Assembly: GCA_049999805.1 (NCBI GenBank)
Contig: JBNGIO010006235.1
Coordinates: 86,430-123,102 of the forward strand
DNA from: Folioceros fuciformis
Lineage: Eukaryota
Reading direction: 5' to 3'
Length of the DNA: 36,673 nucleotides
The notes below the pieces were generated by a model. It had not been told where the DNA came from. It did not search any database and was given only the letters and a program-made list of their open reading frames with translations. Made by a program: the position numbers and the translations under genes. This document shows, piece by piece, positions 2,389-29,910 of the stretch. Positions within the stretch are counted from its first letter, which is position 1. Each line of letters opens with the position of its first letter.

Positions 2389-3137
2389 CCATAAATATTA
2401 ACATCATCATTTATCATTATGATCATCTTTTTCTTGCTTGTGAAAACAAAAACATGCATTGAATTGGAGAAGTTTGGGTTGAAGAAGTTTAGTTGAAGAA
2501 AAGATAGGAAATGAGAACAACATAGTCTAAGGGTGAACTAGCTACTTTGTAAAGTCTACCTATTCGTTTTTTAATATGCTTCATAATACTAGTTTTTAGA
2601 TTAGGATCTAAGTGTCTGAGTTTAAATCCGTCCCATGACCCTAGGTGAACTTACAAAAAAATCTTACTCTATTAAAACTTAGAAGATATTTTCCTTCTCT
2701 CTGTGTTAAAGAAACTCTAGTAGACAATATGTACTTAGTTAGTCTTGTAAACGTTCTCTAAAAATTTCGGTATGTGCCCAATGGATGGGGATTGTCCCAC
2801 TAGTGTCACGAGGCAGATGTTGGGGGGTTTGCCCACAAGCCAGAGCTAGGCAGGATTGCCAGTGGTGGGTAATCCTCCCTCCTGCTGTGTAAAGATATTG
2901 TGACCTAACGCGTAACAGCGAGGGACGAAGCGAAAGGGACGGACATTTTGTACAAGAAATCGTGCAAGGACCGTGACGAATGGAAAATCGCGCGGGAGAT
3001 GGAGCAGATGTGGGGGAATTAGACTAGTCGAAGACATGAATGCTTGACGCGGCTGGCCAGGGAGCCCTGCACTTCGCGTGGAGAACAATACGCCAGATCG
3101 GGGCTGATGAATGCTGCAGCTGTAGGGATTTGATAGC

Positions 3138-6100
3138 ATGACCATGGATCCCTCGGCGGCAGCTGTGGAGGAGCCTGGCGCGCCTGCACAGTCCGAGGCC
3201 ACCGAGCCCGTGCCGATTGACGACCACGCCGAAGGGATCGGGGAGAAGGCAGAGGAGGTCGTGCAGGAGAAGGAGCTGACGCCGGAGGAGCTGGCTGAAG
3301 CTGCATTGGAACGCCTTTTTGCGTCTCCGTTTTTCGCTTCCACTGTGAGCCTTGGAGTAGTGACGCGTTGTGGATCTGAGGGGAGGTTGGAAATTTGTTG
3401 AATTTGTGGTGTTGCATGCAGAACGAGAAAGCAGCGGTTGAAGGTGACGAGGATCAGCAGGCCGATCTTAGAGTTACTGGAGGCGATCTCACTTTTGGTG
3501 AAGATATCGGCAGGTTCGGGTGCAAGCCACTCTCTTAAGTCCGTTTGTGATGAGTGAGGAAGGAATCTGATGAGTGCATTGTTGGTTGCAGTGAGGAGGT
3601 CTCGTTGGAAGGGCTGCAAGAAGAACTAGAGCACTACAAGGGTCAGGAGGTTGGTCTCTGTCCCCTGGTGTGGTATGATTGTGTCACCTCGACCTGTTCG
3701 TCTGCTGATAACTCTGTCGTTGTTAGATTGTAGCAAAGATTCTCGGACAGGGAAGTGGATTGGTAGAGTATGCCAGAGACGTGGAGGAGAAGTTGCGGGT
3801 TGTGGAGCTTGAGTCCATTCAGGTGCATTTCTGGCAGCTGTTGTGTTGAGGTTTGTGGGAGGCGTAGTGGGATTTCTTGATCTTTGACTGCTGCTGCACA
3901 CACAGGACTACATAAGTGAAAGCGACAACTTGGTATCTCTCCATACTCAGATAAAGGATTGTGACACTATTCTCACACACATGGAAGCTTTGCTTGGGGG
4001 ATTCCAGGTATCTGTTGGCTAAATCAGGGGCAATTGGTGCGAATTTGGACTGTGTTCTTATGTTCTGTTGTTTTGTGTCTCTGAAGGCTGAGCTTGGTTC
4101 CATTAGCTCAGAGATAAGGAGCCTGCAAGAGCAGTCGATGAGCATGGGTGTGAAGCTTCGGAATCGCAAGGTTTGAACTCCTCGTGGCCAATGACTGTAT
4201 TTATGGGCTCGTCAAAGTCAGTCTTGATCCATGTAATTGCCTCTGTAGGCAGCAGAGACAAAATTGGCGAGATTCATCGAAGAAATTGTTGTGCCCCCTT
4301 CCATGATTGATGTCATCCTGGATGGAGAGGTAATGTTGTCGCTGGCAGGTTGTGAATCTAAGGAGCTTACTGTTCTCAATCTGGCATGGATTAAAGTCTT
4401 CATTTTGAAACTGCAGATCACGGAAGAGTATATGAAGAATCTTCAGCTGCTCAGTCAGAAACTGAAATTCATTGCGGATGATGCTACAGTAAAGGATTCT
4501 GCAGCCTACCGGGATATTGAACCTGAATTTGAGAAATTGAGGGTTAAAGGTGTCTCAAAGGTTTGTAGACATCCTCCTGCAGTTTCATAGTTTCTTGACA
4601 GTGTGACAAAGGTTATAGTTGTTGAGGTTATCTCCGCTCTGTTCAGGCCAGGGAGTTCATCATGCAGAAGCTGGTGGCGCTGAGGAAGCCAAAGACGAAC
4701 ATTCAGATATTGCAGCAGAATGTTTTACTCAAATACAAGTTTGTAACTTCTGACCAAGCATTTGGGAGTCTGGCCATTGTTGACAAGGATGCGGCTGTCA
4801 ATTTACTTGAGTTTCTGTTGGCAGGTACGTGATCACATTTTTACGTGACCATGGCAAGGAAGTCTATCCAGAAGTCCGTGCCGCCTACTTAGACACAATG
4901 AACAAGGTATGTGCCGTTCCCGCTGCTGCAGCATAGCTCCCTTAATTCACATTGCATGTGCGTGTACTATTGATATGTCCCATGTTTCCATGATCTTGAA
5001 ATGATCATTGTATCAGGTACTGAGTGCACATTTCCGAAGCTACATTCAAGCCTTGGAAAGGCTCCAACTTGACATTGTGACTAGAAATGATCTGATTGGT
5101 GTGGAGGATAATCGGAATGTTGGGATATTTTCTCGAGTACGGGAGGGTTTGAAGAATAAATCAGCTGTCTTTTCTCTTGGAACTCGAGCCCAGATCCTCA
5201 AAGTAAGTGCTGTTGGATCGAATTGAGTGGAACTCGTAGAGTCCGTAGTATGCAACAGTGGGTCTGACGAAGTTCTGTTGGTGTGCATCCCCCAGGATGT
5301 GGACCAGCCCGCAATTATTCCTCATATAGCAGAAGCTAATGCAACAAAGTTTCCATATGAGGTTCTCTTTCGCAGCTTGCACAAGTTGCTGATGGACACC
5401 GCCACCTCTGAGTACTTCATTCTTGGCACTCGCTCTATAAGAGTTCCTGCCTCACTTCCTGACCGTAGACGGAATTTGCTCTGGGTGATTTGGCATATCC
5501 TGCCATGAAATGAATGCATGTTTCACAAGGCTTGACATTTATTGAATTGAAGTGTCCAGTGAGACTGCCTTTGTGTAGCTGTTCCTACTAGTCATTTTGA
5601 GCTGGGTTTCCTCCCGAACCTGAGTCTGGTGCTGTTTGACTGCAGGTATCTCTTCTGTCTCGGTTTTTTTGGAGAGGATGCCATATTCAATGAAATATTT
5701 GCAGGTGCTATTGTTAAACTTGACACAACTCTAATGCTAGGGAGCGGCAAGGATGCATCTTGAAGTTAAGAGTGTTGTCCTGAAGGGGCTGATATCACTC
5801 CCCTTGCCTGAGATGTGGAAACAAGCTCTGTCGAACGATTTGATTCTGTTGAATATCACATTGGTCTCTACATTTTTTTGATTCAGGTCCTTTCGCTGTC
5901 ATTGATGATCACGTAAACACGGTTTTGACAAATTGTTTCGATGCTGTGGGGCTCATGCTCATGATTCGGTTGACATACCAGCATCAGGTATTTCTTGACC
6001 ATCAACGGATAATGCTTGGCTTTAAAAGATCAGGAAATCATGTTACTAGGGAGGTTGTCTGTGTCTTTTAACGAGTCTCTCGTATTTGTGAAAAGTAGCT

Positions 6101-7307
6101 CATTATGTCAAGGCGGCGAGTTCCTTGTCTTGACTCCTATTTTGATAAGGTATGTTTTGTGGTTTTGCGACTGCAGCAATCAAGTGTTTGCATTTACGCT
6201 TACTTGGAGCAATTGGTTGTGTCACTCAGGCAAATCTTCTTCTGTGGCCACGGTTTAAGGTTGTGTTTGATATGCACCTAAACAGTTTACGAACTGCAAC
6301 TCCCCGCACTCTGTGGGAAGATGATGTGCATCCGCACTACGTGTTCCGGCGATATGCAGAATTTGCTGCATCTCTGCTGCAGCTCAACATCGACTATGGT
6401 GATGGTCAGGTGCGTTTGCGCACACACGGGATGGCTGTTGTTACATGTAACTGTCGTCTGATCTTGATTCACCTACAGCTAGAGTTAAATTTGGAGCGCC
6501 TCCGGGTGGCTGTGGATGACTTGTTGGTGAAGCTCGCCCGCATATTTCCAAAGCAAAAGCAACAGAGTGTCTTCCTCATCAACAACTATGACATGGTGCT
6601 GACAGTCTTGAAGGTAGTGACGTAACAGTGAGACTGTGTGGACAGTGTTAATGGAGTTCGAGGTGCTAACATCCGGTCTCATGCCGCAGGAAGCTGGCGT
6701 TGAAGGGGGAAAGACACAGCAGCAGTTTGAAGAGTTATTGAAGAGCAGCACCACGGTTTTTGTGGTAGGACGAGATTAATACGCTTTTCTTAGTCGCGTG
6801 TTTTGGAGCAGTTAGAAACGTTGGTAAGACAGGTGTATGTGGCTCTTCCGCAGGAGGAAGAACTGAAGGAGCACTTCCAGAAGATGATACAGTTCGTGAA
6901 AACGAGAGCTGGTAAGTGCACGCAGTGATGCGACCTGCGAGATATGCAATGCGTTTATTGTGTTTGACCTCTTGCTGGCTTTCCGAACAGGTGACAGCTC
7001 TAGCGCAACGTCCAGTGCGGCTGGCTCACAGCCTATCACTCTACAGGATGTGGAGCCGTTGGTGAAAGATTTTGCCAAGAGATGGAAGGGTGCCATCGAG
7101 CTGATGCACAAGGATGTGATAACGTCATTCAGCAACTTTTTGTGTGGCATGGAGATATTGCGAGCGGCGCTAACTCAGCTGCTTCTCTACTACACTCGCC
7201 TTTCCGATTGTTTGAAGCAAGTTGGTGGAGGAGAGGCACTGGGCAAGGACGTTGTTTCCATAGCCTCCATCATGTACGAAATCAAGAAATATTCGCGAAC
7301 ATTCTAG
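3138..7307 (+). CDS. VPS52: Vacuolar protein sorting 52, GARP complex subunit (about 20 coding exons; gene span given)
   Basis: Spliced exons (e.g. 3138-3344, 3422-3513, 3592-3649, 3727-3822 ... 6991-7307) give SLEGLQEEL, LRKPKTNIQILQQ, PYEVLFRSLHKLLMDTATSEY, LWPRFKVVFDMHL, LWEDDVHPHYV and C-terminal SIMYEIKKYSRTF*, matching plant VPS52/POK as I recall it. Canonical GT-AG introns. Confidence 0.95.
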
Positions 7308-7982
7308 AGCCGGCCTGTGTTTCCTCACTCGTAAGTTTCCTCTTCCGGTGGCCGCGTGCTGCTGTCTACCTAGTGGTCTCGGAACAATTCAAGATACGCG
7401 GCGAGAAAGATGAGCAGATCGGGAACGTCGCGAGCGGACCGCTGGGCGGCGCCTTATCTTTCAGAACTTGAGCAATGCATCTTCGAGGGCCTCGCTACCA
7501 GACTACACAGAGGTCACTTTGCCATACTGGTCTTGAGCCAGGGTGTCCAGAAGGTTATGAAGCCTCACTCCTGACTGCCTAATGGTCTCAAGTTTATGGA
7601 AGATGATTTTTTTCCTTTCATCGCGTTCTCGTGTGTGAAGTCTCCAATTACAGCGACATTCATGTTGCTCAAGCATCAGGCATAACAGCGTGTAACGGAG
7701 AGGTTAAGCTCGTGTGTTAACTGGGTCACCGGGCAAGGTCGATTTGTCCTCCGTAGTCCGTGAAGCCCTGTGCATGCACCAGACGTACAGGCTTGCAGGG
7801 TCCTGACGGCCAGTCTCCAACTATGGATTGGGGCTTGTTAAGGAGAGTGTCCGAATGTTGACCCGCCCGTGATCTGATCCAGTACCAAACTACCATGACA
7901 CGAAACCAGCTTGGTCGTCTCTTCAACCAATGCGTACCATTGCAATACCATTACTGGGTTGTAGTGTGCTCTTCCCTTCTTC

Positions 7983-10900
7983 TCACGGTCGACCCTTGCA
8001 ACTGCAAGAACCAGCTGCGAATCGATGCACACGGTATCCATCTCTCACAACTATGTCCCTCTGTTCAAGCCTTGACATGATCTCAGTGGAACTATGGCAG
8101 TCACTGCACATGCGTAGGTTCTTCGTCACCACCAGGGGTGTCCCACTCGGAGTGTTCAACAGGCCAAACGCAAGAGCTAGTTTCTCAGCATGCCCACACA
8201 GCGCATCTTCCTTTTCCTGCTCAGACAACGGCTTCAACACCAACTTGGTGTGAGGTAAGTGGCCTCCTTCCTGCTTCACACGTGCGTTCGTGCTCTCCAG
8301 CTTGAGAGCGATATCCTCCCTCTTTTCCCCCACCAGAAATCGATGTACCTGCCTGTTCACCTCAATGGTGGTAACTGCGGGTTTCTTGTTCGCTCCTGAA
8401 ACCTTTCTCTGTGTTTCGATCCTGTCTACATCCATCCACCTGCCTGCGTCTGCGTAGGCATTGGCCATGAGCACATGCGCAGACGCATTCTGAGGGTCCA
8501 CCTTCACGATGCGTTCGAAACAACATATCGCCCTCTCTATGTCCCCGTAGCTTTTGGAGGCACTCAACAGAGTCGTCAAGCCCACAATGTTACAGTCACT
8601 TTCAATGGCCTCACATGATGATAGCATCCTCTCGGCCTCACCTAGACGGCCTGCACGCCCAAGAAGATCAACCATGCAGTTGTAATGCTCAGGAGTGGGC
8701 TTGATGCCGTGCTGGTCAGCCATGGAATCAAAGAGACTGCGACCCTCGTCGACCAGTCCCTCGTGACTGCATGCTGCTAGAAGGGAAGTGAAAGTAGCAC
8801 CGTCAGGCTGAATACCAGCAACTAGCATCTCCTCAAAACAAGCTAGTGCCTTGTGACCTTCATCACAAGAGCCGTACCCAGATATCAGGGCGGTCCATGT
8901 CACCACATCCTTTCTGTCCATGCAGTCAAAAACCTGACGTGCATCTTCCAGTTCTCCATATTTCGCATACATGTCCACCAGGCAGGTGCCCAACACTGCG
9001 TTTTTCAGCAGACCTTTCTTGACGATCAGCGAGTGCAGTTGCCTGCCCTTCTGCAGCGCACCACTGCTTGCACAGGCTTTCAGAAGGCAAGCAAAAGTAA
9101 CCCCGTCCGCAAGAATGCCCTCCTGCTCCATTCGTCCGTACAGGGCGAGTGCCTCATGTCCGAGCCCTTGCTGGGTATACCCAGCTATTAGGACATTCCA
9201 TGTCACCACATCCTTTGTGTTCACGCTGTCAAAAACCTGGCGTGCTTCCTCCAGTTCACCACACCTTGCATACATGTCCACCAGGCAGGTGCCTAACACT
9301 ACGTTATCCAGCAGCCCTCTTTTGACGATCTGTGAGTGCAGCTGCCTGCCCTCCCGCAAGGCACCAGTGCTTGCACAGGCCTTCAGAAGGCAACCATAAG
9401 TAACATGGTTAGCCAGAATCAGGCCCTCCTGCTCCATTCGTCCATACAGAAGAAGCACCTCTTGGCCAAGCCCTTGCTCGGCATAGCCTGCTATTAGAGT
9501 TGTCCATGTCACCACATCCTTCGTGCTCATGCCGTCAAAAACCTGGCGTGCGTCTTCCAGTTCACCGCATTTTGAATACATGTCCAACAGGCAGTTGACC
9601 ACCTGTACGTTCTCCATCAGTCCTCTTTCAATAATCTGTGAGTGAAGCTGCCTGCCCTTCTGTAAGGCACCGCTGCTTGCACAGGCATTCAGAAGGCAAG
9701 CAAAAGTGACATGGTTAGCCAAAGTCAGCCCCTCCTGCTCCATTTGTCCGTACACAGCTATTGCCTCGTGTCCCAGACCTTGCTGGGAATACCCAGTTAT
9801 CAACACCGTCCATGTCACCACATCCTTCGAGGCCATGCTGTCAAAAACATGGCGTGCATCTTTCAGTTCACCACATTTTGCATACATGTCCACCAGGCAG
9901 TTGCCAACAAACAAGTTAGTAGACATGGCACTCTGCACCACATCGCAGTGCAATTTCCTGCCCGATTCCAAGTCGGCGGCTAATGCGCAAGCTTGAAGGG
10001 CAGCTACGAAGACGTGGGCATCCGCCTTCACTCCTGACCTGCGCATCTCGTGGTACAGTTGTATGGCCTCATCAGGTTTCCCATGCTTAGCGTACGCGGA
10101 GATCATCGAAGTCCACATGAAGACATCCGGTTTGGGCACCCTGGTGAACGCATCCATCGCCTCCTGCAGCATACCTCCAGATGCATACATGCGCAAGATA
10201 TGGTTCCCCAAGTATGCCTTCAAATTGTACCCAAGTTTAACAGTGAGTTTGTGAACTCGTCGGCCCACAACCATATCCTTCTGCTCTCTACACAGTTTCA
10301 GCACACTGTAAAACAGAGACGGAGAAATGGCAGAGTCTGTCTCCACCAGAGATTCCAGGGCTACAAGAGCCTCACAAAGCTTCCCCTGCTGACATAGCAT
10401 GCTCACGGTTCCAGCCGTTACGACGCCCATTTCCGATCCTTCCCGCCTGCTAAGTTGGGGCTTACACCGAGAGCGCGACTTGGATGGAGAGCCACCATGA
10501 CCCATCTTCACATTCAAGGAAACGAGCTTCTCATCAACCCAAGCAGGCTTGAACGTGTTGTTTAACCACAGGACCTCGCCGGACCCCTTTCGCCGGAAGT
10601 CAGGCGAACCTGAGCTCTTCTTATCTCGTCTGTTGTCCCACCACATAGTGGGTTCCATAAAAAGATGTTGCCACAAGTGCTCGTGTTCCTCCCGGAGATC
10701 ATCGTTGGAAAACCTAGCCGTACCCACACTTTTGATCGGAAGTGGCAGTGCTGGGCTTGTTACACTGCTGCACCTGGCGCCCATCCCCGATCTATCATGC
10801 CTGCCAGATTCAGGCTTACCCGGCGAGCTGCACTCGGAAAGAGCGACACCTTGACCCATCTGCATATCCAAGGAGAGGAGCTGCTCATCAACCCAAGCTG

Positions 10901-11264
10901 GCTTAGACACATTGTCCAACCATAGCACCTCGCCAGACCCCTTACGTCGGAAGTCAGGCGAACAGGAGCTCTTCTTATCTCGTCTGTTGTCCCACCACAT
11001 GGTCGGGTCCAGAAAAAAATGTTCCCACAAGCGCTCCTGCTCCCTCTCCTGCTCCTGGCAGCCACCATCGCTTGAAAGCCCGTTCCCACCCACCCCTATC
11101 CGGTGAACTGGAAGTGCTGGGCTCCTTAAGCTGCTGCACCTGGGGGCTTTGCTAGCCACGAGTAGAGTCCCTACAGGAAGGTGACCGGGAGCGTCTGGTA
11201 GAATCCGTGTACACACCCGAATATGTTGGGTCCACAACGATTCCGGTTGCCACACTGCGGCCAT
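7983..11264 (-). CDS. PLS-class PPR protein, 1093 aa, intronless: 2 PDF-like motifs, about 17 PLS motifs, E1-E2, DYW:KP (GRP-ending) domain; candidate U-to-C RNA-editing factor
   Basis: Repeating P/L/S motifs (DVVTW..LI.GY, VTF.CLL.ACA, LVDMYAKCGELEDAR.VFD), then KKPAVTTIEV, CGHAEKLALAFG, KNLRMCSDCH and terminal CSCKGRP*. N-terminal WWDNRRDKKS..SPDFRRKGSGEVLWL occurs twice. Confidence 0.95.
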   Translation of the reverse strand: MAAVWQPESLWTQHIRVCTRILPDAPGHLPVGTLLVASKAPRCSSLRSPALPVHRIGVGGNGLSSDGGCQEQEREQERLWEHFFLDPTMWWDNRRDKKSSCSPDFRRKGSGEVLWLDNVSKPAWVDEQLLSLDMQMGQGVALSECSSPGKPESGRHDRSGMGARCSSVTSPALPLPIKSVGTARFSNDDLREEHEHLWQHLFMEPTMWWDNRRDKKSSGSPDFRRKGSGEVLWLNNTFKPAWVDEKLVSLNVKMGHGGSPSKSRSRCKPQLSRREGSEMGVVTAGTVSMLCQQGKLCEALVALESLVETDSAISPSLFYSVLKLCREQKDMVVGRRVHKLTVKLGYNLKAYLGNHILRMYASGGMLQEAMDAFTRVPKPDVFMWTSMISAYAKHGKPDEAIQLYHEMRRSGVKADAHVFVAALQACALAADLESGRKLHCDVVQSAMSTNLFVGNCLVDMYAKCGELKDARHVFDSMASKDVVTWTVLITGYSQQGLGHEAIAVYGQMEQEGLTLANHVTFACLLNACASSGALQKGRQLHSQIIERGLMENVQVVNCLLDMYSKCGELEDARQVFDGMSTKDVVTWTTLIAGYAEQGLGQEVLLLYGRMEQEGLILANHVTYGCLLKACASTGALREGRQLHSQIVKRGLLDNVVLGTCLVDMYARCGELEEARQVFDSVNTKDVVTWNVLIAGYTQQGLGHEALALYGRMEQEGILADGVTFACLLKACASSGALQKGRQLHSLIVKKGLLKNAVLGTCLVDMYAKYGELEDARQVFDCMDRKDVVTWTALISGYGSCDEGHKALACFEEMLVAGIQPDGATFTSLLAACSHEGLVDEGRSLFDSMADQHGIKPTPEHYNCMVDLLGRAGRLGEAERMLSSCEAIESDCNIVGLTTLLSASKSYGDIERAICCFERIVKVDPQNASAHVLMANAYADAGRWMDVDRIETQRKVSGANKKPAVTTIEVNRQVHRFLVGEKREDIALKLESTNARVKQEGGHLPHTKLVLKPLSEQEKEDALCGHAEKLALAFGLLNTPSGTPLVVTKNLRMCSDCHSSTEIMSRLEQRDIVVRDGYRVHRFAAGSCSCKGRP

Positions 11265-12393
11265 AGCTCAGGAAACCTGTCCAAAGATGAGAGCCAAACA
11301 ACCTACTACTGCAGGATGCCCTGGGTACTACCACGCCGTACGGGCTCACAAGGATGAGCCCGAACCCGGAACCGAAGGGCCTGCACGAAACGTCTACCAT
11401 GGATGTGAACGCCTATGCAACTTTTTGCCTCCTTTCCCACTCCGTTTGGACACAGAAGCAAAGGAGCTCTCATCCAACTTCCACTGTGAGACAGGACAAC
11501 CTAACGAATCGGTGGGTAAAGCGTTTCCACAGGGACCTCCGTTTCCGGCTAGGTTCCCTCTAGGATCTTTCCCTGGCCAATAAAGTGTCCATAACACAAT
11601 GTCGTGAGGGGCAAGGTAGTAGCGGGGCCACAATCATCCAAATCCACCAACTCCGTGGAATGTGCCACCCATTCATGAGGAGCAGGAGGAAGTCACAAGA
11701 ACATTGATTCATGCTGAAGAGGATACCAATTCATGGGGCATTTGTGAAATATGGCATGCAAGAGCAGGCACTGATCATCTCCCTCATTGCTTAGGGAGGG
11801 GAGACAGGAGGATTAGGAAGTTTCAAGAGCAGGCATTGATCCTTGAATCCTTGAGTGAGTAAGTAGATATGCTTTTGTCTTGTATCAACTTGTCCCTGGG
11901 AACTACTTGCATACCTATTCGTTATATAAATATAAATATAAACTATGAAATTTATTTTAAGGAATGCTTCTTTCACTTCGTCTTCTGCCATTCTTGGCTT
12001 TTCCCTATTGCGTGTTGTTCTCCTTGTCACGAGGTAGATGGATGGAACTTCCATCTCTTTTTTTTCTATTAAGTCTTTAGATTCCACCTTCGTCTTCTGT
12101 GAATATGGTTAAGCACAGAATTCATTGCAGTGAAAGGCGCTAAACTTTGAGGTAAGGACGTTTCTCTAACATGCACTACCCGTGTGTTTTGAATGTGAGT
12201 GGGTGTGCAGCTGATTACAAAAATCATCCCAATGGCATAAAACGCGGTTTCTGAAAACCGTTGAATGGGAGTGAGGTGAGGACAGCCTGCATTCCTGTGT
12301 GGAACGTCCAGTCCTCGTTTACACCAAGTGTCGCTGCATTGTTCCTCATGGTGACTTCCCGAGTTCCTGCCGGTGTGATTTCCCGAGGAGGAG

Positions 12394-14338
12394 ATGACGA
12401 CTTTCTCGGACGATGAGGATTGGGACGATCCATCGTTTCTGTCGCAGCTGGAGGCTGCGGAAGCTGAAGGAGTGAGGCGGCTGTCGCAGCAGGGGGATGG
12501 AGACCGTTCTTCCTACAGCAAGAGGAAGCGGCAGAACACGCCGGGGGCCGCTGAATTCTCCCCGCAGGAAGATTATGGAAGGGAGCGCAGTGAGGACAAG
12601 GCCTCAACGACTCTGATAGCTGAGGAGGAAGGGGACTACACGACTGCGCTCAAGGGGAGCAAGAGTGCCAAATGGGAGTCCAAGGTGTCTGCTCCTCGTG
12701 GCACTGCCTACGAGGGGGGCTCTAATCGGGCAGCAGAGAGCTATGGAGGTTCCGGATCGCGTCAGCAATCCGGGGTGGTGCCGGAGAGGCCGTGTCCTTG
12801 CGGGGCCGGCTTGTGTAATGTGCTCACGGCGCGGACTGAGAGGAACATGGGAAGGAGGTTTTATACGTGTCCGAAAGGCAAGGTGAGGAGGTTTTTGTGA
12901 AATTTTGGTGTTTTGTTGTTGAATGATCTGTACGTCGTGCTGCAAAGCTTACGGAGTTTGTGGCGGTGTTCTGGAGGAGTAGGATGAAGGCTGTGGTTTC
13001 TTTGAATGGTGTGAAATTGGAGGAGGCCAAGGGCATTCCAAAGATCTCCAGACTCAGAGTGCGGGTACAGGAGACTCCGGCTGGTCTGCAGATCGGATTT
13101 CACAACCTCAGATGGATTGCCCTTGTGGCGCAGGCGCCTGCTTAGTGTTTACGGCCAAAACCGAGAAGAACTGTGGACGGATGTTCTACCGTTGCCCTAA
13201 CTCGAAGGAGGTTGGTTGGTGTAGATGATTTTTCGCTTGCCCTCTCTTGTTGAGTCAGTTTGCTTCCTTGCCATGATTTTCATGAAGCTAGAGGAGTCAC
13301 CTCATGCATGAAGCTAAAGGAGTGAATGAGGCTAGAAGCGTGCATGAAGCTNNNNNNNNNNGCATGAAGCTAAAGGAGTGAATGAGGCTAGAAGCGTGCA
13401 TGAAGCTACAGGATTGACCTCCTGGGTTTTCTTTTTTTCTGGATTTGCAGAAGTCTTGTAATTTCTTCAAGTGGTGCGATGAAGAATCCTCTACAGCCAG
13501 TCGAGGATCTTCTGGTGGAGAGTTCAGTGGTAGGCAGGGTGTAGCGCACCAGAGTCCAATGACAGCTGGTTACCTAGGCTTTGGTGGTTCCGGTGGCTAC
13601 CATGGTGCAGGTGCAGACCATAAGAGTTTTCCGGCAGGTCATGCAGGATTCAGTAGTCCAGGCGGCGGAGGTGCGACCACGGGGAATTGCTTCACTTGTG
13701 GACAGAGCGGACACTGGTCAAAAGACTGTCCGCAGCAAAGATCCACGAGCACGTCTGGAAGGCAAGGTGGTGATGAGAGTGCAGGTGCAGCTGGTCATGC
13801 AGGCTTTGATGGGGGAGGTGGACACAGCGGGAACTGCTTCAACTGTGGACAGACCGGACATTGGTCGAAAGACTGTTCACGACAAAGGAACACGAGCACC
13901 TCTGCCGTGCAAGACGGTGGGCCAAGGTTTGGAACCCAGGAAGACAATTCAGGAAAGACCAGCGGTGCCTGTTACGCTTGTGGTCAACCAGGTCACTGGG
14001 CTCCCAATTGCCCTCTTCGGATATCTCCTAGTAAGCCACGGACTAGCCCTAGTTCTAGATCCCTTCCTAGTTCTAGAAGCGCAGGCGCACAGAACACTGG
14101 GAGCATGCCATCTTCGGGAGGACGAGGCGGTTCTTGCTATAAGTGTGGGCAACCAGGGCACTGGGCTCCAGACTGTGGCAATCCTTCTCCAGCTAAGAGT
14201 CAAAAGGCTAGTCGTAGCCCTAATGCCAAAAACACGTGCTATAAGTGTGGGAAACAGGGTCACTGGGCTCCAAACTGCCCGTCGAGGGGCTCCCCGTCGA
14301 AGAAGAGTTCAGGCTACGGAAGGGGACGCAACAGTTGA
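12394..14338 (+). CDS. GRF zinc finger (x2) / CCHC zinc knuckle (x5) nucleic-acid-binding protein; exons 12394-12882, 12983-13210, 13451-14338
   Basis: CPCGAGLC...NMGRRFYTCP..GCGFFEWC and CPCGAGAC...NCGRMFYRCP..SCNFFKWCD are joined in frame by phase-0 GT-AG introns. Five CX2CX4HX4C knuckles follow (CFTCGQSGHWSKDC etc.). Confidence 0.9.
13306..13408. repeat. 36-bp intronic repeat flanking a 10-N assembly gap (13352-13361)
   Basis: gcatgaagctaaaggagtgaatgaggctagaagcgt occurs on both sides of the gap. Confidence 0.8.
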
Positions 14339-14389
14339 TCTGGGCCCCACTGATAGTTCTTCGCCAACTGCAAGGCAAGCCAACAGCAA

Positions 14390-16590
14390 TCATGGCAGCG
14401 GAAGAGGAAATGTCCAATCCCTCATGGGTCGTAGCTGCCGATCTACAACGGATCCATTGTGTAGCCAGAATGTCTCAGCAGACTGCTGAAACTTTCTCAC
14501 TTTTTGCTCAAGTTCCCAGAGAATACCAGTCATGGCTGTGCATGGTTCGGAATCTGGGCCATACACCCACAGGCAGCGCACTTGTCGTCCGTTGCGAAGC
14601 ATCCTCTCAATTTCGCTATCTGAAATGAGAAATGAATGGGTGAGCTGTGCACTTATCGAATTAGATTTCTAGCGAAGACTTATTTGAGGGTCATACCTGG
14701 TATCGACGCTAGATACTGAAGCAAGCTCTCGTCAATTTTTGTAGCAGGCCACTTGATCGAAAATGATGTGTAGTCGAGGATGCTCTGAAATGGCAGCTCG
14801 ATTTGATCTGAAAGAATAACTGGTACGCATTCCTGTAAGATGCAGACATTTAAGTTTCAGTGGCCAAGACTGCCTCAGCATGTAAACCCAGCGAAGGTGA
14901 GAGTTACCACAAAGAAAGACTCGTAGAAGCGGAGAGTCCAAGACGATTCCCCTCTGGGCGACAGGCAGAATTTCGCGTCTCTCAATCTCTCCAGGTAAGC
15001 CCTTTGCCCAAGCTTCATGGGTCCTGTGAGCTGCAAAATTGGAGCATCCAACTGCGAAAAAACAGATTGCACATCACAGGTAAAGCCATCGCCCGTATAT
15101 CTTTAGCCTTAGACTTACCTTCCCCCACTACAGTAACATTTCAGGATAGTGCACCTGGTCAGGAAAATGTTTCCCGAGTTCAATTATCTTGAGCCGTCCA
15201 GCCTTTCCCTGGGCACGCCCAAGAAAATTCACAAGATACTTGCGTTTTGCAAGAGCCACTGGCTTGAGTCCCTTTTGTACCGAGGAATTTTGCAGGGATA
15301 TCCCATTATCCACAGCTCCTGGGATGATGATATCCTTCCAAGTATTGAAAGCACTGCTGCCCCGCTTGTCCGTTCTATCACCCTGCATGCAGACCAGGAA
15401 CAGGATCTCATTCAGAGAGCCTACCACATGGACTAACTTCGAGAAGATGTACAAGCACGTGACAGAAACATGTTCCAAGCTTACCTCCGGCGTCAGGAAG
15501 ATTGAGCGATTGAGAAAGACAGCCCAGTCTTTGAACAGGTGCGCACCAGCTCCACTGCATGTCCCCACCGGCACAACACATTGTGTCCAAGCTGAGCTAC
15601 GCACTTTGCTTGACATGACCAGCAAAGGTAGCGGATGAAAGATTGTTTAAACCATATTCTGTTGAGACAATGTCAGCAGCTTGAGAAGTGCAGCAAAAGT
15701 GCAGAAGCCCTGGCGTCCACAGCGAAACCATGTACCTTGGGAACACAAAAACATGGTCCCTCCCACCAGACCGTCTAAAGTAAGGCATTTGCTGCAGCAC
15801 CTGGAAGGAACGGCAAGCACGCATGAGAGAGCATGAGATAGCTGCAGCTACGTCTGGTTGGCTCCCAACGTTCTGAATAGGTGACAACCTCCCACCTCCA
15901 CAAAGGTGCTGTTGATTTCCTTATCAGACAGACCACCTGCCATGCGCACGCACTTGATGTAGGCAGGAACAAAGAAGAGGTGAGCCTTGTCCTTGTCTCT
16001 AGTCCGCACCTCCGAGGTGAGAAGAAACCTGTGAATTTTCACCTGCACATAATTCCCTGTCAATACCCTGTACCCAACATTGCCCACGGCACACAAGGCA
16101 AGCACAAGAACGAGCTCAGGACCTGCGTCCCCCACTGCCCAGCCTCACACCGTCTCTCATCTATGTTGTGGTCACGCCCGGCCACCAGTTTCTTCAACCC
16201 TTCCACCTCCTCCTCCCCATACACATACACTCTGAGGGACAAGGTCGTCCCAACCCGTCGAGCCTGCTCCCCCAACGCATCCTCCAGGCTAGTACCAAAG
16301 TTCTTGTCTCCGGAGTGCAACACCGAATTGGGTCTCCCTTTCCCGGCCCCTCCTCCTCCCTCCCACGCGCGATCCAACCAGCGCGTGCCTGCACACTTTC
16401 ACGAACTCTCAGTCAACGGCTCATGCATCCCCCATTGTCTCACACTCTCTCACCCACAACACAGCCAACAGCAGCATTGTCACTCACAGATGAAGGTCAT
16501 CACAACCAGCACAATGCCTTGCAGCCAGGAAGACGGGATGCAAGAAGCTGAGTGTCCCTTCCGCAGCAGAGGACGGTGCCTCCCTTCCAT
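14390..16590 (-). CDS. Exostosin-family (GT47) Golgi glycosyltransferase, about 9 exons, At1g21480-like
   Basis: N-terminal TM anchor (WLQGIVLVVMTFI), then VYVY, GQWGTQVKIH, LFFVPAYIKCVRM, MPYFRRSGGRDHVFVFPSGAGAHLF, KFCLSPRGESSWTLRFYESFFVECVPVILSD and C-terminal ETFWLHNGSVVDR...FPLPLP*. Confidence 0.92.
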
Positions 16591-17221
16591 GGTCTGGAAA
16601 GGAGAAAAGAAGCAGACTACGAGTGCTTTGCAGCCTAACTGTGCCTGGGACCACTGCTTTCATTCTCCGTTTCTTGTCTGAACACATTAGACAGCCGACG
16701 TACATACATGTCACTCACCACGTACTTACATGTCACTCACCACGTACTGTAGTTTGAACCTGGAAGGACGGTGAAGTCGATGAACTGAACTCTCATTTTC
16801 TACCATGACTGGCACATGATATTTGTCCTCTGCACGTGCCTCTGCCCTTCATACCATGACACGTCATGGATGATGTCAAGCCACCCTCGCCTTGTTAATA
16901 CAGTACTGCATTGTTAATTTGTGATCTCCACTAATTAATTTCATTTTCCTCTCTCATTCAGACAGTTCCACGTGGGGACGCCCTCTTCGCCATTGAATTC
17001 CGCAACAAACGTGTATCCGACTAGGCGGACGGCGACGGGCAAACCGGCGTAGGCGGTGCGAATGACCGGGAGGTGTGTGGTGAGACAGGTGGCGTGGGCG
17101 GAATGAGCCGGTGGCAGGGGCGACACGAATTTGTGGAGCCCGACGCCCGACGGCCTAGCCTTGTACAATTTAAAGAGAAGAGGCGAGACGACGACTTGAA
17201 CGCTTGAGCGAGTGGACGGCG

Positions 17222-19618
17222 ATGGCGGCTGTCTCGACCGGACGCACTGTGGTGGTGGGTTGCAATGCCAGCCGCGGCCTGCAGCAGGGGCATCCCCAGT
17301 TTGTGCCTTTGGGGCTGGGAGTGGGAGTGGGCTCAGCGGGAGGAGCTCGACGATGGCGGCGGCAGCAGAAGCAGCAGAAGCAAAAGCAGCAGCTGCAGCA
17401 GCTGCAGCAGCAACAGCAACATCAGCAACAGCGGATGCAGGTTCGCGCAGTGCTGGACAAGCCGAGTCTGCCTCCGGCAGAAAGCGGGCAGGGGGATCCG
17501 GTGCGGGAGGCCCTGGAGCGCCTGTTCCAGCGGCGCCCTGCAGCCGGGGAATCTGAGAGCCGGGCCCTAGAGGTTGCAGTGAACGCCCTTGAGGTGGATC
17601 TGAACGAAGCCCTGGTGGCGTTGCGGAGCAAGGAGGAGGAGCTCCGGGCGGCCGAGAAGGCGCTCAAGGCGGACCAGTGGGAGGTGCAGATGTCCCGCGC
17701 CGAGCTGCACAAATGGGAGCAGGAGCTTATGGCTGTACGCTCTACCTACGACGACAAGAAGACGGAAGTGAATCGGTCCCAGAAGCGGCTGGCTGCGCAG
17801 GCTGGGGAGCTGCAGAAGGCCAAGCGGATGCTGCAGGAGCGGGAGTCTGAGATAGGGGTGGCGCAGGCCGCCCTCGGGGTGAAGGAGAAGGAGCTGAAAA
17901 GGCTCCAAGGCGTGGTCAAGGAGAAGGATGTGGAGCTGGCGATGGTCGCCGAGGCGCTGAAGACGAAGGATGTGGAGTTGCGGGGAAGCATCAAGACCGT
18001 GAAGGAGCAGTCGACGGGGATGGAGAGAATGCGAGCTGTGATGCAGGAGCAGGAGCAGACTGTGCTGTCGCTGGAGCGGGAGCTGAAGGAGAAGGAGGTG
18101 GTGTTGGATAAGACGGCGAGGGAGTTGGAGGGGAAGGTTGTGGCCTGGCTCCAGGCTGGGGAGGAGATCAAGCGGCTGGAGGCGGAGGTGCGGGGCCAGC
18201 GGGAAGGCGGGGAGGAGGCGAGGCGGGAGGTGGCTATGGCGAAGGCTGTGTTGAAGGAGGTGGAGGGAGAGCTGCGGGAGAGCCAGAGGTCTGTGGCCAC
18301 GTTCAAGAACGTGGTTGAGGAGCAGCGGGGGAAGCTCGGGCGGCAGGGAGAACTGTTGCGGGAGCAAAAGAAGACTATCAAAGCTCAGGCGGAGCAGCTG
18401 GAGGCTAGCGTGAAGCGGCTGGCGGAGGCCAGGGAGGAGGTGCAGTCATGGCAAAGCGCGTACAAGGCCCTGGAGCTGAGGCTGGAGGAGGAGAAGAAGG
18501 GGGCCGGGGTTGTGAAGATGGAGCTGGTCCGGGAGCGAGAGGCTCTGGCGATGGCTGTGAAGGAAGTGAAGGAGTTGAAGGCGGAGCTAGGGTTGCGGGA
18601 GAGGGAATTGGTGAAGGTGAATGCCGCTTTGCAGGCGAAGGAAGTGGAGTTGGAGGCGAGCAAGACGGAGATTGAGGAGTTGAAGTTGGAGTTCGCGGAT
18701 GTGAGGCGCGCAGTGGAGGATAAAAGCCAGGAGCTGGCTGTGGCGGAGAGGCGGATTAAGGGGTTGGAGATGGAGGTGGCGGAGGTGCGGGCAGTCCTCA
18801 AGAGCAAGGAGCATCAGCTTGCGGGGACAATGCTTGCTTTGCAGGAGAAGGACGACCAGATGGTGCTTATGCAGGGAGATTTGCAGGAGAGCCAGATGCG
18901 GCTGGCGGAGGCTACCTCCGTGGTGGAGCAGATCAGCTCCTTGTCCAGGCTGCTGGTGGAGTCGTCTTCTTCCATGGGGCTTTCCCCAGCGAGGTCGGAT
19001 GAAGGCTCGCTGCTCATCCAGGCCAACTGTGACGTGTTCGCTGCGAACCGCGCACTGCTGGAGACGGAGCTGCAGCTGCAGCGGCTGTACGAGCAGTCCG
19101 TGGGGAATGAGCTGCGGATGAAGGAGGTGGAAGCTGAGCTGGAGGCCGTGAAGGAGTGTTTGAAGGAGAAGAACGAGGAGCTGCTGAACGCGCAGCGAGC
19201 TTTGGTGATGAAGGAGCAGGAAGTGAGACCCTCCGTTGTGGCCGCGTTGCAGCTGACTCGGCTGGAGGATTCGGGGATGCAGGCGGAGCCGGCGACAACG
19301 GAGGTGGAGAAGCTGGAGCTGGAGCTGGCCAAGCTCGAGGCCGAGACGGCCATGTCTGCCTTGCACAGACTAGCTGAATTGAGCCAAGAGCTGGTGGCCT
19401 CGGCAAGCACGGGCGAGCCCGCCATGGTTGCCGCGCGGTCCAGCGTTGTCGAGACGGGGCCTAACCTCTCCAGGCTGCTGAGCCACGTGACTGGCATCCA
19501 CAACGGGGACGCTGCCCTGGAGATCATGGGGGGCGCCATGGCCGGCCTCGCCAACCTCGCACGACAGCTGGTGCTGGATGCAGGGATCGATCTCTCCTCC
19601 GAGCCTGTGCCGGCGTAG
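17222..19618 (+). CDS. PII1: Plastid coiled-coil protein, Protein Involved in starch Initiation 1 / MRC homologue (intronless; ATG at 17222)
   Basis: Transit-peptide-like N-terminus ending VRAVLD, then ALERLF, LEVDLNEALVALRSKEEEL, WLQAGEEIKRL, EKLELELAKLEAETAMSALHRLAELSQEL and LVLDAGI, colinear with Arabidopsis PII1/MRC as I recall it. Long heptad coiled coil. Confidence 0.8.
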   Translation: MAAVSTGRTVVVGCNASRGLQQGHPQFVPLGLGVGVGSAGGARRWRRQQKQQKQKQQLQQLQQQQQHQQQRMQVRAVLDKPSLPPAESGQGDPVREALERLFQRRPAAGESESRALEVAVNALEVDLNEALVALRSKEEELRAAEKALKADQWEVQMSRAELHKWEQELMAVRSTYDDKKTEVNRSQKRLAAQAGELQKAKRMLQERESEIGVAQAALGVKEKELKRLQGVVKEKDVELAMVAEALKTKDVELRGSIKTVKEQSTGMERMRAVMQEQEQTVLSLERELKEKEVVLDKTARELEGKVVAWLQAGEEIKRLEAEVRGQREGGEEARREVAMAKAVLKEVEGELRESQRSVATFKNVVEEQRGKLGRQGELLREQKKTIKAQAEQLEASVKRLAEAREEVQSWQSAYKALELRLEEEKKGAGVVKMELVREREALAMAVKEVKELKAELGLRERELVKVNAALQAKEVELEASKTEIEELKLEFADVRRAVEDKSQELAVAERRIKGLEMEVAEVRAVLKSKEHQLAGTMLALQEKDDQMVLMQGDLQESQMRLAEATSVVEQISSLSRLLVESSSSMGLSPARSDEGSLLIQANCDVFAANRALLETELQLQRLYEQSVGNELRMKEVEAELEAVKECLKEKNEELLNAQRALVMKEQEVRPSVVAALQLTRLEDSGMQAEPATTEVEKLELELAKLEAETAMSALHRLAELSQELVASASTGEPAMVAARSSVVETGPNLSRLLSHVTGIHNGDAALEIMGGAMAGLANLARQLVLDAGIDLSSEPVPA

Positions 19619-26409: not shown

Positions 26410-26700
26410 ACATTGTGGATGGTGAAGAAACAAAGTAGAAACCAAAAAAAATTTCTTTTAGTTTCTTCATGAGTCCATTGAAGTAACAATGATCGAGGAG
26501 AAAAAAACTTTGTACTCTATGGCAGCTCGTGATGTGATGTGGAGCCCAAAAATCTAGATGGAAGATTCCATAGAATATTCGCGTAAATATATTATTGAAA
26601 AAAATTTAATAAGGGTCGCATGTCCGTATTCGTATTTAATATTTAAAAGCTCTTAATAGATGAAACATTGCCTGCTAAGCAATCAAGGTTTGAATGTGCG

Positions 26701-29700
26701 ATGTGTGTGCGAAGCTACGCACAGATGGTGAATGGAGTTGAAACGATTGCCTGCGTTTTGAGTCGTGAAAAACTGACTTGCATGAAAACCACGGACGGAG
26801 GCTGGAGACTGCACCAAGCCTGGGTGGAGGCACTGAGTCAGGATATGCAAATTGGTTGTCCATCTCTCGGGACGGAGGATGGTGTTCATGGGATGTCTGA
26901 AGGAAACAAATGCAGCGTCACGCCTGAAACCGTGAACGAGCTATGTAGTGGGAGCCAGCTGGCTGAGGCTGTTGAGGCTCTGGGAGTTCTGGTGCAGACT
27001 GATTGCTGTGATCTGAGGACGGGATTTTACACTGTCTTGAAGGAATGCGCAGGCCAGAAGGATCTGGTTCTGGGCCGCCGCGTCCATGCTTTCGCGGAGA
27101 GACGGGGCTATCAGTCGGATACGTTCCTGGGCAACCATATCCTGCGGATGTATGCTTCTCATGGCAAGTTGCAAGAAGCGATGGACGTGTTTGCGGTGGT
27201 GGTGGAACCTGATGCATTCACGTGGTCTGCCATCATTTCTGCCCATGTTAAACATGGGCATGACAGGGAGGCCATCGAGCTTTACCGTCGGATGCGTAGG
27301 TCGAGTGTGAAGCCAGATGGCCGGGTGTTTGTGGCAGCTCTGCAGGCGTGTGCAAGGGAATCGGACTTGGAAACTGGGCAGCAGGTGCATACCCACATCT
27401 TGGCGAGTGGGGTTGAGCCTGTTCTTTTTGTGTGGAATAGCTTGGTGAACATGTACTCGAAGTGTGGGAGCTTGGGAGAAGCGAGGAGAGTGTTCGACGG
27501 ACTTGGGGTGAAGGATGTGGTGACTTGGACTGCCATGATAGCAGGATATGCCCAGCAGGGCATGGGGCAGGAAGCCCTTCGTCTGTACAGTCGGATGCAG
27601 GGAGGGGGCATGACCGCTCCCAATTCCGTGACGTTTGTGTGCCTCCTGCAGGCTTGTGCGAGTGTGGGTGCCCCCGCTTTGGAGGAGGGGAGGCAGCTTC
27701 ATGAGCAGATCAGGAGACTGGGACATGAGGAAGATGCTTTTGTGGGCAACAGTTTGGTTAACATGTATGCCAAGTGTGGGAGCTTGGAGGATGCTCATAG
27801 AGTGTTCGATGGCCTTGGGAGAAAGGATGTGGTGACGTGGAACGTCATGATCGCAGGGCACTCCCAGCAGGGTATGGGGGAGGCAGCCCTTCGTCTCTAT
27901 ACGGCTATGCAGGAACGAGGTACAACTGTACCTGATTCTGTGACATTCTTGTCGCTCCTGCAGGCGTGTGCAAGTGTGGGTCCCCCAGCTTTGGAGATAG
28001 GGAAGCAGCTCCATACACAAATTAAGGTGCAAGGACGTCAAGCGGATAGGTTTGTAGCCAACAGCTTGGTGAACATGTACGCAAAGTGTGGCAGCTTGGA
28101 GGATGCGAAAAGGGTCTTCCAAGGACTTGGTCAAAGGGATGTGGTGACATGGAATGCCATGATAGCAGGGTTATCTCAGCAGGGGATGGCCCAGGAAGCT
28201 CTTCGCCTTTATGATGATATGCAAGACGAAGGCATCTCCGTTCCTAGTTCCGTGACGTTTGTGTGCCTCCTGCAGGCATGTGCAGCCGTGGGCACCCCTG
28301 CGTTGGAGACGGGAAAGCAGCTCCATGCGCAGATTAAGGAACAAGGACATGAAGCTGACGTTTTTGTTGCCAACAGTTTGGTAAACATGTACGCAAAGTG
28401 CGGCAGTGTGAGAGATGCTCAGAGACTGTTTGACGGAATCGCTTGTAAAGATGTGGTGATGTGGAATGCCCTGATAGCAGGATATTCCCAGCAGGGCATG
28501 GGGCAGGAAGCCCTTTGTATGTTTAGTGCTATGCAAGAAGAAGGCATGGCTCTACCTGATGCTGTGACATTCGTTTGTCTCCTGCAGGCATGTGCAAGTG
28601 TGGGCACCATGGCGTTGGAGAAGGGGAGGCACATCCATACGCAGATAAGAGAACGTGGATTTCAAGCTGATGTATTTGTAGCCAGCAGTTTGGTAAACAT
28701 GTATGCCAAGTGTGGCAGTCTCGAAGATGCTCAGAGAGCGTTCGATGGACTTGGTCAGAAAGACGCGGTGACATGGACTGCCATGATAGCCGGGTATTCC
28801 CAGCAGAACATGGGCCAGGAAGCCCTGCGTCTTTACAGCGCGATGCAGGAAGAAGGCATTGCCGTTCCTGATGCTGTGACATTTGTGTGCCTTCTCCAGG
28901 CCTGTGCAGATGTGGCAGCTTTGCATGTGGGAAGGCAGCTACATGTGCAGATTGGGCAACAAGGGCTCCAAGCTGATTCTTTCGTAGGCGGCAGTCTAAT
29001 AAACATGTATGGAAAGTGTGGGAGTATGGTTGATGCGCACCAGGTTTTTGATGCGCTGCCCGAGAGAGACGTCGTTGCCTGGAGTGCGCTTATTGCTGGC
29101 TACACCTGTCAAGGTGACTGTAATGTCGTCTTTGACTTGTTCCAGAAGATGGGGGAGGATGGTATTCTGCCAGTTGGCATCACATTCCTTAGCGTGCTCA
29201 CGGCATGCAGCCATGCAGGTCTAGTGAACAAGGGAAGAGAGTACTTTGAGGCCATGAGCGGGCAGTATGGCATCAGTCCCACGGTGGAGCACTATATATG
29301 CATGGTGGATCTCCTGGGCCGTGCAGGTCAACTGGATGAGGCCCTAGCTCTGATAAGGACAATGCCTTTCCTGCCCAATGCTCCAGTGTGGCATACTCTG
29401 ATGAGTGCTTGTCGAAAGTGGAGCAACACGGAGGTGGGAAAATACGCTTTCGACCAAGCAGTGAAGGTAGACAGCAAAGATGATGCAGCATACATGATGA
29501 TGTCAAACATGTATACCTGTGTACAGATGTCTGAGGAGGCACAGAAGCTGCAGGAGAGGAGGACGAGGATCAGTGCAGGGAAGCAACCAGGTCAGAGCTG
29601 GTGGACAGACACAAACGGAGTGGTGCATAGTTTTTTGGTCGGGGATGAGAAGCATATCAAGAGTCAAACAAGGCTGAACGATGTGTACTCCCAAGTAAAT

Positions 29701-29910
29701 GAGGAATATGTGTCATTTCCGGACTCGTCAATGGCAGACATATTTGATAGTATGAATGACCGATCATGTGAGAAGCTGGGGACTACCAAAAGCATCACCA
29801 GATTTGCTGCTGGTAGGGCTTGGTTATCAAACTACCACCAAAAACCTCTTGGCAGTAACGCAGTGAACTATCTGCTGGGTTTCAAGTTGGTTACATGTAT
29901 ACAAGGGTGA
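26701..29910 (+). CDS. PLS-class PPR protein, intronless, about 23 motifs, E1-E2 and an eroded WW-type DYW tail (first in-frame ATG 26701; true start uncertain)
   Basis: Regular P-L-S triplets; L2 ITFLSVLTACSHAGLV; S2 EHYICMVDLLGRAG; KQPGQSWWTD..VVHSFLVGD. HxE and CxxC zinc ligands are missing. Confidence 0.92.
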   Translation: MCVRSYAQMVNGVETIACVLSREKLTCMKTTDGGWRLHQAWVEALSQDMQIGCPSLGTEDGVHGMSEGNKCSVTPETVNELCSGSQLAEAVEALGVLVQTDCCDLRTGFYTVLKECAGQKDLVLGRRVHAFAERRGYQSDTFLGNHILRMYASHGKLQEAMDVFAVVVEPDAFTWSAIISAHVKHGHDREAIELYRRMRRSSVKPDGRVFVAALQACARESDLETGQQVHTHILASGVEPVLFVWNSLVNMYSKCGSLGEARRVFDGLGVKDVVTWTAMIAGYAQQGMGQEALRLYSRMQGGGMTAPNSVTFVCLLQACASVGAPALEEGRQLHEQIRRLGHEEDAFVGNSLVNMYAKCGSLEDAHRVFDGLGRKDVVTWNVMIAGHSQQGMGEAALRLYTAMQERGTTVPDSVTFLSLLQACASVGPPALEIGKQLHTQIKVQGRQADRFVANSLVNMYAKCGSLEDAKRVFQGLGQRDVVTWNAMIAGLSQQGMAQEALRLYDDMQDEGISVPSSVTFVCLLQACAAVGTPALETGKQLHAQIKEQGHEADVFVANSLVNMYAKCGSVRDAQRLFDGIACKDVVMWNALIAGYSQQGMGQEALCMFSAMQEEGMALPDAVTFVCLLQACASVGTMALEKGRHIHTQIRERGFQADVFVASSLVNMYAKCGSLEDAQRAFDGLGQKDAVTWTAMIAGYSQQNMGQEALRLYSAMQEEGIAVPDAVTFVCLLQACADVAALHVGRQLHVQIGQQGLQADSFVGGSLINMYGKCGSMVDAHQVFDALPERDVVAWSALIAGYTCQGDCNVVFDLFQKMGEDGILPVGITFLSVLTACSHAGLVNKGREYFEAMSGQYGISPTVEHYICMVDLLGRAGQLDEALALIRTMPFLPNAPVWHTLMSACRKWSNTEVGKYAFDQAVKVDSKDDAAYMMMSNMYTCVQMSEEAQKLQERRTRISAGKQPGQSWWTDTNGVVHSFLVGDEKHIKSQTRLNDVYSQVNEEYVSFPDSSMADIFDSMNDRSCEKLGTTKSITRFAAGRAWLSNYHQKPLGSNAVNYLLGFKLVTCIQG

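Follow-up and report, generated by a model that had tools for sequence, protein, structure and literature searches.

What does the GRP-ending DYW domain on the reverse strand of 7983-8387 do in a 36,673-nucleotide (nt) stretch of Folioceros fuciformis DNA (the window: GenBank assembly GCA_049999805.1, contig JBNGIO010006235.1, positions 86,430 to 123,102)? The original prediction proposed that it belongs to a natural enzyme of reverse, uridine-to-cytidine (U-to-C) RNA editing. The locus is an intact gene, probably expressed, for a pentatricopeptide repeat (PPR) protein with a DYW:KP domain of the GRP subgroup. We consider it likely that this nuclear, intronless gene encodes a native organellar U-to-C editing factor of that class and subgroup, a catalytic role that would follow from its class membership.

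Gene architecture and the residues of the DYW:KP domain

Does the domain belong to a complete gene? The whole open reading frame (ORF) occupies 7983-11264 on the minus strand (1093 codons plus a TGA stop, intronless) and encodes a PLS-class PPR-E1-E2-DYW:KP protein (P0001, hereafter the query). Its stop-to-stop frame exceeds the ATG-initiated ORF by one codon only. The reverse strand of 7983-8387 corresponds to the final 134 residues and the TGA of this 1093-amino acid (aa) protein. Pfam places DYW_deaminase at residues 1001-1091 (expectation value E 2.4e-32; 111 bits against a cut-off of 24) and the E motif at residues 906-968 (E 9.3e-17), with PPR families N-terminal of the E motif at E down to 4.7e-92. 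Because the DYW_deaminase, E motif, and PPR families all match (the latter two, upstream, at E 9e-17 to 5e-92), a chance origin is excluded, and the GRP-ending DYW domain in this ORF is real.

Residues 1-60 (11085-11264, minus strand), with two acidic and six basic residues and an abundance of P, L, A, V, and S, have a composition that fits a likely organelle-targeting presequence. After two copies of a WWDNR...PDF module, described below, come, all on the minus strand, the PLS array (8589-10427; residues 280-892; 18 PPR motifs), the E1 motif (8487-8588; residues 893-926), the E2 motif (8388-8486; residues 927-959), and the DYW:KP domain of the GRP subgroup (7986-8387; residues 960-1093). A tblastn search with E2 + DYW found no second full DYW domain in the window.

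Which features of the domain set its class? Every motif on which the original prediction relied is in place in the translated reverse strand of 7983-8387. KKPAVTTIEV stands at the domain start in place of the PG box, and HAEKLA replaces HSEKLA; HAE itself (8184-8192, minus; H1025, A1026, E1027) supplies the zinc-ligand His, the KP-type Ala, and the catalytic Glu. K1048 (8121-8123, minus), which is Lys88 in DYW:KP numbering, is the proposed nucleophile and nitrogen donor. The zinc ligands of CSDCH (8094-8108, minus; C1053, C1056, H1057) are kept within KNLRMCSDCH and have Met92 (M1052) immediately before them. The protein ends not in DYW but in CSCKGRP (7986-8006, minus), with the second-zinc ligands of CSC encoded at 7998-8006 and the terminal GRP at 7986-7994.

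How are these features distributed among DYW domains at large? The comparison set came from a word-indexed search with residues 900-1093 (76 matches) and a full HMMER scan with the domain alone, from which the best 150 of 2481 matches at E <=0.001 were used. The 221 pooled proteins gave 224 DYW stretches by phmmer; 200 that span query positions 8-128 were kept and 24 partial ones dropped. Sorted by their own residues, the 200 rows comprise 113 PG rows with HSE, 34 other HSE, 24 other HAE, 13 DRH-like, 11 HCE, and 5 GRP rows including the query.

The query box, KKPAVTT, is KP-type: all five GRP rows have Pro at box column KP2 and Ala at box column KP3 (positions, not the designer proteins so named below), whereas all 113 PG rows have there, at KP3, the Gly of PG. 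HAE is found in every GRP (5/5), DRH-like (13/13), and other-HAE row (24/24), against HSE in 112/113 PG rows. The Met92 column holds M in 5/5 GRP and 13/13 DRH-like rows, as compared with V in 65/113 PG rows. At KP position 101 the query has Glu, shared by 3/5 GRP rows, where Lys is present in 13/13 DRH-like, 23/24 other-HAE, and 104/113 PG rows. Gly takes the place of the D of DYW in all five GRP rows, query included. These last two changes are the ones described for the GRP subgroup: G for the D of DYW, and Glu for the Lys (K103 in PG numbering) that bonds that D (PMC9478123). The query domain is also shorter, at 133/134 aa (133 from K961), whereas most PG rows have 136/137 aa; the xHP stretch is missing from it, which leaves a gap opposite SHPQ of the structure 9kfx in the alignment. 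By its sequence, then, the query carries every diagnostic residue of the DYW:KP class and of its GRP subgroup.

Phylogenetic placement, fold, and closest known systems

Does the query still fall among DYW:KP proteins when these residues are set aside? We built a tree by IQ-TREE quick search (LG+C20+F+G4; 200 rows, 129 columns) from which, against circularity, the columns for the box, for the middle residue of HxE, and for the last three positions had been removed. The five GRP-ending rows form one clade (Shimodaira-Hasegawa-like approximate likelihood ratio test, 94, just under the threshold for a star), which makes the GRP end one change on the tree. This clade is nested in a starred 19-row set of 12 DRH-like, 5 GRP, and 2 other HAE rows, itself nested in a starred 31-row set made up of HAE rows only. 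The latter lies within a starred 61-row set (support 98), to which all HAE and HCE rows belong along with 8 HSE rows. The query thus sits with the GRP and HAE rows, and the clustering with canonical DYW:PG domains that had been named as the outcome to refute the prediction was not seen. The assignment to the DYW:KP class holds on both counts, by the diagnostic residues and by placement in a tree without their columns. A PG domain with a mutated tail, which we considered as a candidate, is ruled out by the tree and about 10 class-specific columns.

What fold does the domain have? An AlphaFold2 run on E2 + DYW with a 60-row alignment gave a mean predicted local distance difference test score (pLDDT) of 95.1 and a predicted template modelling score (pTM) of 0.86. 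The top Foldseek match in the Protein Data Bank (PDB) is a synthetic PPR-DYW-RNA complex (9kfx_A; E 1.9e-18, TMq 0.87, root-mean-square deviation 1.9 over 166 columns), followed by the DYW domains of OTP86 (7o4f, 7o4e) and DYW1 (7w86), with other cytidine deaminase folds far behind. The domain is thus predicted by the model to have the DYW deaminase fold. A PDB sequence search returned no DYW:KP chain, and all three matches are PG-type; the ESM Atlas, queried with E2 + DYW, gave generic Streptophyta DYW clusters only. The query shares with these DYW:PG structures the fold (Foldseek probability 1.00 to all three), the HxE...CxxCH and CxC zinc ligands, and the active-site Lys. They differ from it in having the PG box, HSE, mostly Val before CxxC, the xHP insert, and the DYW end; they are C-to-U deaminases with 37-46% identity to the query.

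Which published systems come closest? Among 364 genomes, DYW:KP proteins occur in hornworts, lycophytes, and ferns only (PMC13386178), and those of hornworts fall into the DRH and GRP subgroups (PMC9478123, citing Gerke et al. 2020); the confinement of the class to these lineages and the hornwort origin of GRP forms, both asserted beforehand, are thereby backed by these papers. The same applies to the U-to-C activity of designer DYW:KP proteins, demonstrated for KP2, KP3, and KP6 only (PMC9478123, PMC11845758). In Escherichia coli, KP2 and KP3, designed from GRP sequences, edit U to C at ~26% and ~22%; the figures for HEK293T cells are 11% and 22%. C-to-U activity is reported in neither host, and the HAA and AxxA mutants are inactive (PMC9478123). 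Lys88 is essential for U-to-C editing by KP2, KP3, and KP6, and its substitution turns the activity to C-to-U (PMC11845758). In the published model, the lysine attacks C4 of the uridine to give a Schiff-base conjugate, whose hydrolysis yields cytidine (PMC11332814). The earlier statement that the chemistry is largely unresolved is accordingly in part out of date, now that this Lys88 crosslink model is in print. In the literature searched, covered in part of its text, a report of a tested native DYW:KP protein was not found.

The query matches the GRP subgroup and its designer derivatives in the KP box, HAE, Lys88, Met92, the 133-aa domain without xHP, the GRP end, the Glu for the Lys that pairs with D, and the P2-L2-S2-E1-E2 stretch upstream, and it shares one clade with the four other GRP-ending proteins (65-71% identity to the query over E2 + DYW). 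It differs from the class consensus A, H, and G in its G116, Y117, and K130, and from KP2 and KP3, known here from the paper's description, in its two WWDNR...PDF modules. KP2 and KP3 join a consensus C-terminus to a designer 9-motif array, whereas the query has its own natural array of 18 motifs. Proteins of the DRH subgroup, the basis of KP1, are its nearest tree neighbors (12 of the 19 rows) and likewise have a KP or KPA box, HAE, Lys88, and Met92; they end in DRH or similar and have Lys at KP101 (13/13), in contrast to the query's Glu and GRP end. The fern and lycophyte DYW:KP proteins, the basis of KP4-KP6, resemble it in having HAE or HCE, a KP-like box, and an end other than DYW. In the tree they fall outside the 19-row set around the query, their ends are D-x-x, and KP6 is bifunctional in human cells; among the matches listed, named fern proteins of Ceratopteris and Adiantum have 46-51% identity to the query. 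The class, the GRP subgroup, and a working chemistry model are already published, and the query is a typical addition to the described GRP class rather than a new kind of enzyme; its catalytic domain is unsurprising.

Predicted target, transcription, and alternative readings

How would such a protein act, and on which RNA? The architecture, class residues, tree placement, and DYW deaminase fold are results of the analysis; import, target, and the direction and completion of the reaction are inferred. The presequence would deliver the protein to plastids or mitochondria. There, the 18 PPR motifs with E1 and E2 would attach to single-stranded RNA immediately 5' of the target, each motif facing one base and S2 opposite position -4, and the DYW:KP domain would turn the target uridine into cytidine, by homology to designer KP2, KP3, and KP6. 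The active site would comprise the zinc ligands H1025, C1053, and C1056, the catalytic E1027, and K1048 (Lys88).

Cut backwards from the DYW start by standard motif lengths, the array runs through residues 280-892 as a degenerate first P motif, L-S, four P-L-S triplets, and then P2-L2-S2; over residues 280-959 the register of 35/36-35-31 aa motifs is regular and ends P2-L2-S2-E1-E2. At position 5 and the last position, the P and S motifs carry ND, TD, ND, TN, ND, TN, TD, ND, TD, TD, N(N/D). In the established PPR code TD specifies G, TN A, ND U, and NN a pyrimidine, with S2 opposite -4. Applied to the query, this code predicts the target 5'-nnUGnUAnUAnGUnGGnY(A)nn followed by the edited U. The central triplets coincide with a 306-nt tandem DNA array (8893-9909; 3.3 copies, 81% matches) whose unit is one P-L-S triplet; the PPR array has therefore been lengthened by recent internal triplet duplication.

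Is the gene transcribed? Three sequencing runs of one organism (X1, X2, and X3) contain at least half of the window's sampled words; we compared them over 3000-16000, X1 being labelled RNA by guess only and no run being recorded as RNA. In its pattern, though, X1 behaves like RNA. A 3278-nt X1 contig aligns to 3000-3344 and to 6990-8006, and as only 1792 contig letters separate the two parts, at least 1.8 kb of genome is skipped; in a 2152-nt contig, 229 letters separate the matches to 12265-12880 and 13449-14619. This splicing, in neighboring genes, is deduced from the coordinates of the contig matches and not from listed joints. Over 11680-12113, X1 depth is zero versus ~9-10 in the DNA runs X2 and X3. 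Error-free X1 pieces of the PPR gene cover 8151-8476 (within the DYW domain), 8447-8677, 10188-10576, and 11109-11440, and these exact-match contigs are a weak hint of its transcription. The DNA runs cover the body of the PPR gene by short pieces only, a pattern that we attribute to the way repeated PPR words assemble. In X4, a run of a second organism (B), thousands of contig pieces fall on 7980-11010 alone, with a very high summed depth. At ~60 nt with 2-3 mismatches they were rejected as a copy of the GRP gene and are read as conserved PPR words from the large family of a relative.

How firmly does the evidence point to a U-to-C editing factor? Several observations weigh against it. The 60-row alignment is invariant at the His and Glu of HxE, at Lys88, at both Cys and the His of CxxCH, at a later His, and at the last Cys. 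Lys88 and the zinc ligands neither discriminate between the classes nor fix the direction, since C-to-U DYW:PG domains conserve them too. Within the domain, the query has G at KP116, where 4/5 GRP and 12/13 DRH-like rows have A, and A116 is among the changes that raise the U-to-C activity of KP6 (PMC11845758); it also has Y at KP117, where H is usual, and K at KP130, where 4/5 GRP rows have G. The tree stems from a quick search, and 129 columns are few for 200 rows. The X1 contigs give no levels, and carry-over of DNA is possible. The GRP-based designer proteins are the weaker editors and are found crosslinked to RNA in bacteria (PMC9478123, PMC11332814). The nearest relative, P0002, has a GRP end, one N-terminal module, and a collinear layout (58% identity over 906 aa), yet it matches the query in only 5 of 12 P/S codes, and the remaining three GRP proteins match in 0-4 of 12. 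There is no evidence of selection on specificity, as none of the four other GRP proteins proved to be an orthologue that keeps the predicted target.

The likeliest of the alternatives is a paralogue, recently duplicated, redundant, or in decay, within a very large family of PPR genes, with an open frame but dispensable for editing. Four hornwort genomes hold 1,583-2,308 PPR genes each (PMC13386178). Recent internal duplication is evident here in the 306-nt PLS array and in a 266-nt N-terminal repeat (80% identity); a relative with an identical PPR code is missing from the four other GRP proteins; a few consensus positions of the DYW domain are altered; and two neighboring PPR genes are reduced to the first 20-45 DYW residues. 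Set against this are the 1093 codons free of stops and frameshifts, the retention of all invariant catalytic and zinc-binding residues, the confident model, and the exact-match contigs in the RNA-like run X1. On balance we regard such a paralogue as improbable.

Might the protein instead edit C to U, or in both directions, as a DYW:PG enzyme would? Fold, zinc ligands, catalytic Glu, and Lys88 are all common to DYW:PG; as C-to-U enzymes have the same Lys88 and zinc site, the U-to-C direction would follow from class membership only. Designer KP6 is active both ways in human cells, and Lys88 substitutions turn KP proteins to C-to-U editing (PMC9478123, PMC11845758). KP6, however, is fern-based, whereas the GRP-based KP2 and KP3 are described as lacking C-to-U activity in the hosts named above (PMC9478123), and the query, a member of the GRP clade, retains Lys88, HAE, and Met92; we judge this direction of editing still less probable than a redundant paralogue. 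Least probable, to the point that we give it little weight, is an RNA binder, possibly covalent through Lys88, that acts on RNA stability or translation rather than by turnover editing: the designer KP2, KP3, and KP6 stay RNA-crosslinked in bacteria, which led to the suggestion of a suicide enzyme, and two extra N-terminal modules are present, but U-to-C edited RNAs of the fern Ceratopteris richardii are free of crosslinks in planta (PMC11332814), and the catalytic residues of the query are fully conserved.

The N-terminal module, neighboring genes, and significance

What are the two modules between presequence and PPR array of the presumed editing factor? Copy 1 lies at 10860-11033 (minus; residues 78-135) and copy 2 at 10506-10679 (minus; residues 196-253), each ~58 aa long and with 76% protein identity between them. 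They sit on the 266-nt direct DNA repeat mentioned above (10424-10689 and 10778-11043), whose copies have starts 354 nt apart. WWD.R and PDF occur in all 8 aligned copies, and the consensus has as invariant WWD.R, a K, PDF, and a later P. The module is present in 6 of 222 fetched proteins: besides the query, these are P0002 (once), P0222 (twice; a 1371-aa PPR protein with no DYW family among its listed Pfam domains), P0114, P0138, and P0179. It also occurs once in a neighboring E+-like PPR gene of the window (31549-34029), at 31639-31812 on the plus strand. Apart from P0222 and this gene, the PPR proteins that bear it end in GRP, DYW, or DYL, with three ending in DYW or DYL.

Modelled in isolation, the module is confidently predicted to form a helix, a small sheet, and a helix (pLDDT 84). 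It matches no Pfam family even at E up to 10 and has no usable match in the ESM Atlas, no homologue at E <=0.01 in a search with one copy, and nothing in the PDB by Foldseek at E <=0.001; the best hit of a wide VIA-align search (Z 4.6) is within noise. A four-copy profile found two PPR proteins only and no OSB, a weak negative, as the index was built on common words. The module may resemble the PDF motif of plant OSB proteins. Reviews describe that motif as a 50-aa element with a Pro-Asp-Phe signature that binds single-stranded DNA. The full-text literature searched yielded no paper that brings the PDF motif and PPR proteins together.

The query would thus combine a native GRP-type U-to-C domain with two modules, and we suggest, tentatively and as a guess more apt to fail than to hold, that the module may be an accessory domain, so far unrecognized, of PLS PPR proteins of the hornwort type. 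Should it be related to the PDF motif of OSB proteins, it could provide an extra grip on single-stranded nucleic acid or a partner site, one without counterpart in the designer proteins; if true, the module could bear on the stalling of designer KP proteins at the crosslink. As a side observation it may be more novel than the editing domain.

What surrounds the gene? Two further PLS-class PPR ORFs lie on the plus strand at 26647-29910 and 31549-34029 (1087 and 826 aa, stop to stop). Both have an E motif, the PG-type box QPGQSWW, and the first 20-45 DYW residues only, and are therefore E+-like; E+ proteins are enriched in hornworts (PMC13386178). Pfam gives no DYW match in either ORF, and a full DYW domain downstream of them, considered as a candidate, was not found by tblastn. 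The second ORF is 48% identical to the GRP protein and collinear with it over 787 residues; therefore, related backbones in one 25-kb stretch bear KP-type and truncated PG-type ends.

On the plus strand at ~3000-8006 lies a multi-exon Vps52-like gene (Pfam Vps52_CC at 4303-4587, Vps52_C at 6149-6622). The spliced X1 contig over it stops at 8006, having run 24 nt into the convergent PPR ORF at its 3' end; the Vps52-like and PPR transcripts may therefore overlap tail to tail. At 12265-14619 (plus), a gene encodes a GRF zinc finger (12379-12897) and five CCHC zinc knuckles (13418-14335), parts that a single X1 contig links while skipping at least 340 nt of genome. Farther along, an 814-aa frame (17174-19618, plus) rich in E, K, L, A, and Q is coiled-coil-like, with a glutamine run near its start, and matches no Pfam family at E <=0.001.

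What does the gene mean for its host and its family? It would mark the host as a plant of a U-to-C editing lineage and, by its subgroup, as a hornwort, in line with what had been proposed. Hornwort genomes hold hundreds of DYW:KP genes, and with many like it in genomes of this kind, the gene is a candidate and not a special case. U-to-C editing is the one pyrimidine transition for which, in the parts of the literature covered, only consensus-designed enzymes have been tested so far. This protein, being natural, intact, and of the GRP type, with a PPR code that can be read, therefore lends itself to testing. Work on it could reveal whether a native sequence carries the reaction to completion and could help to pair a factor with its site.

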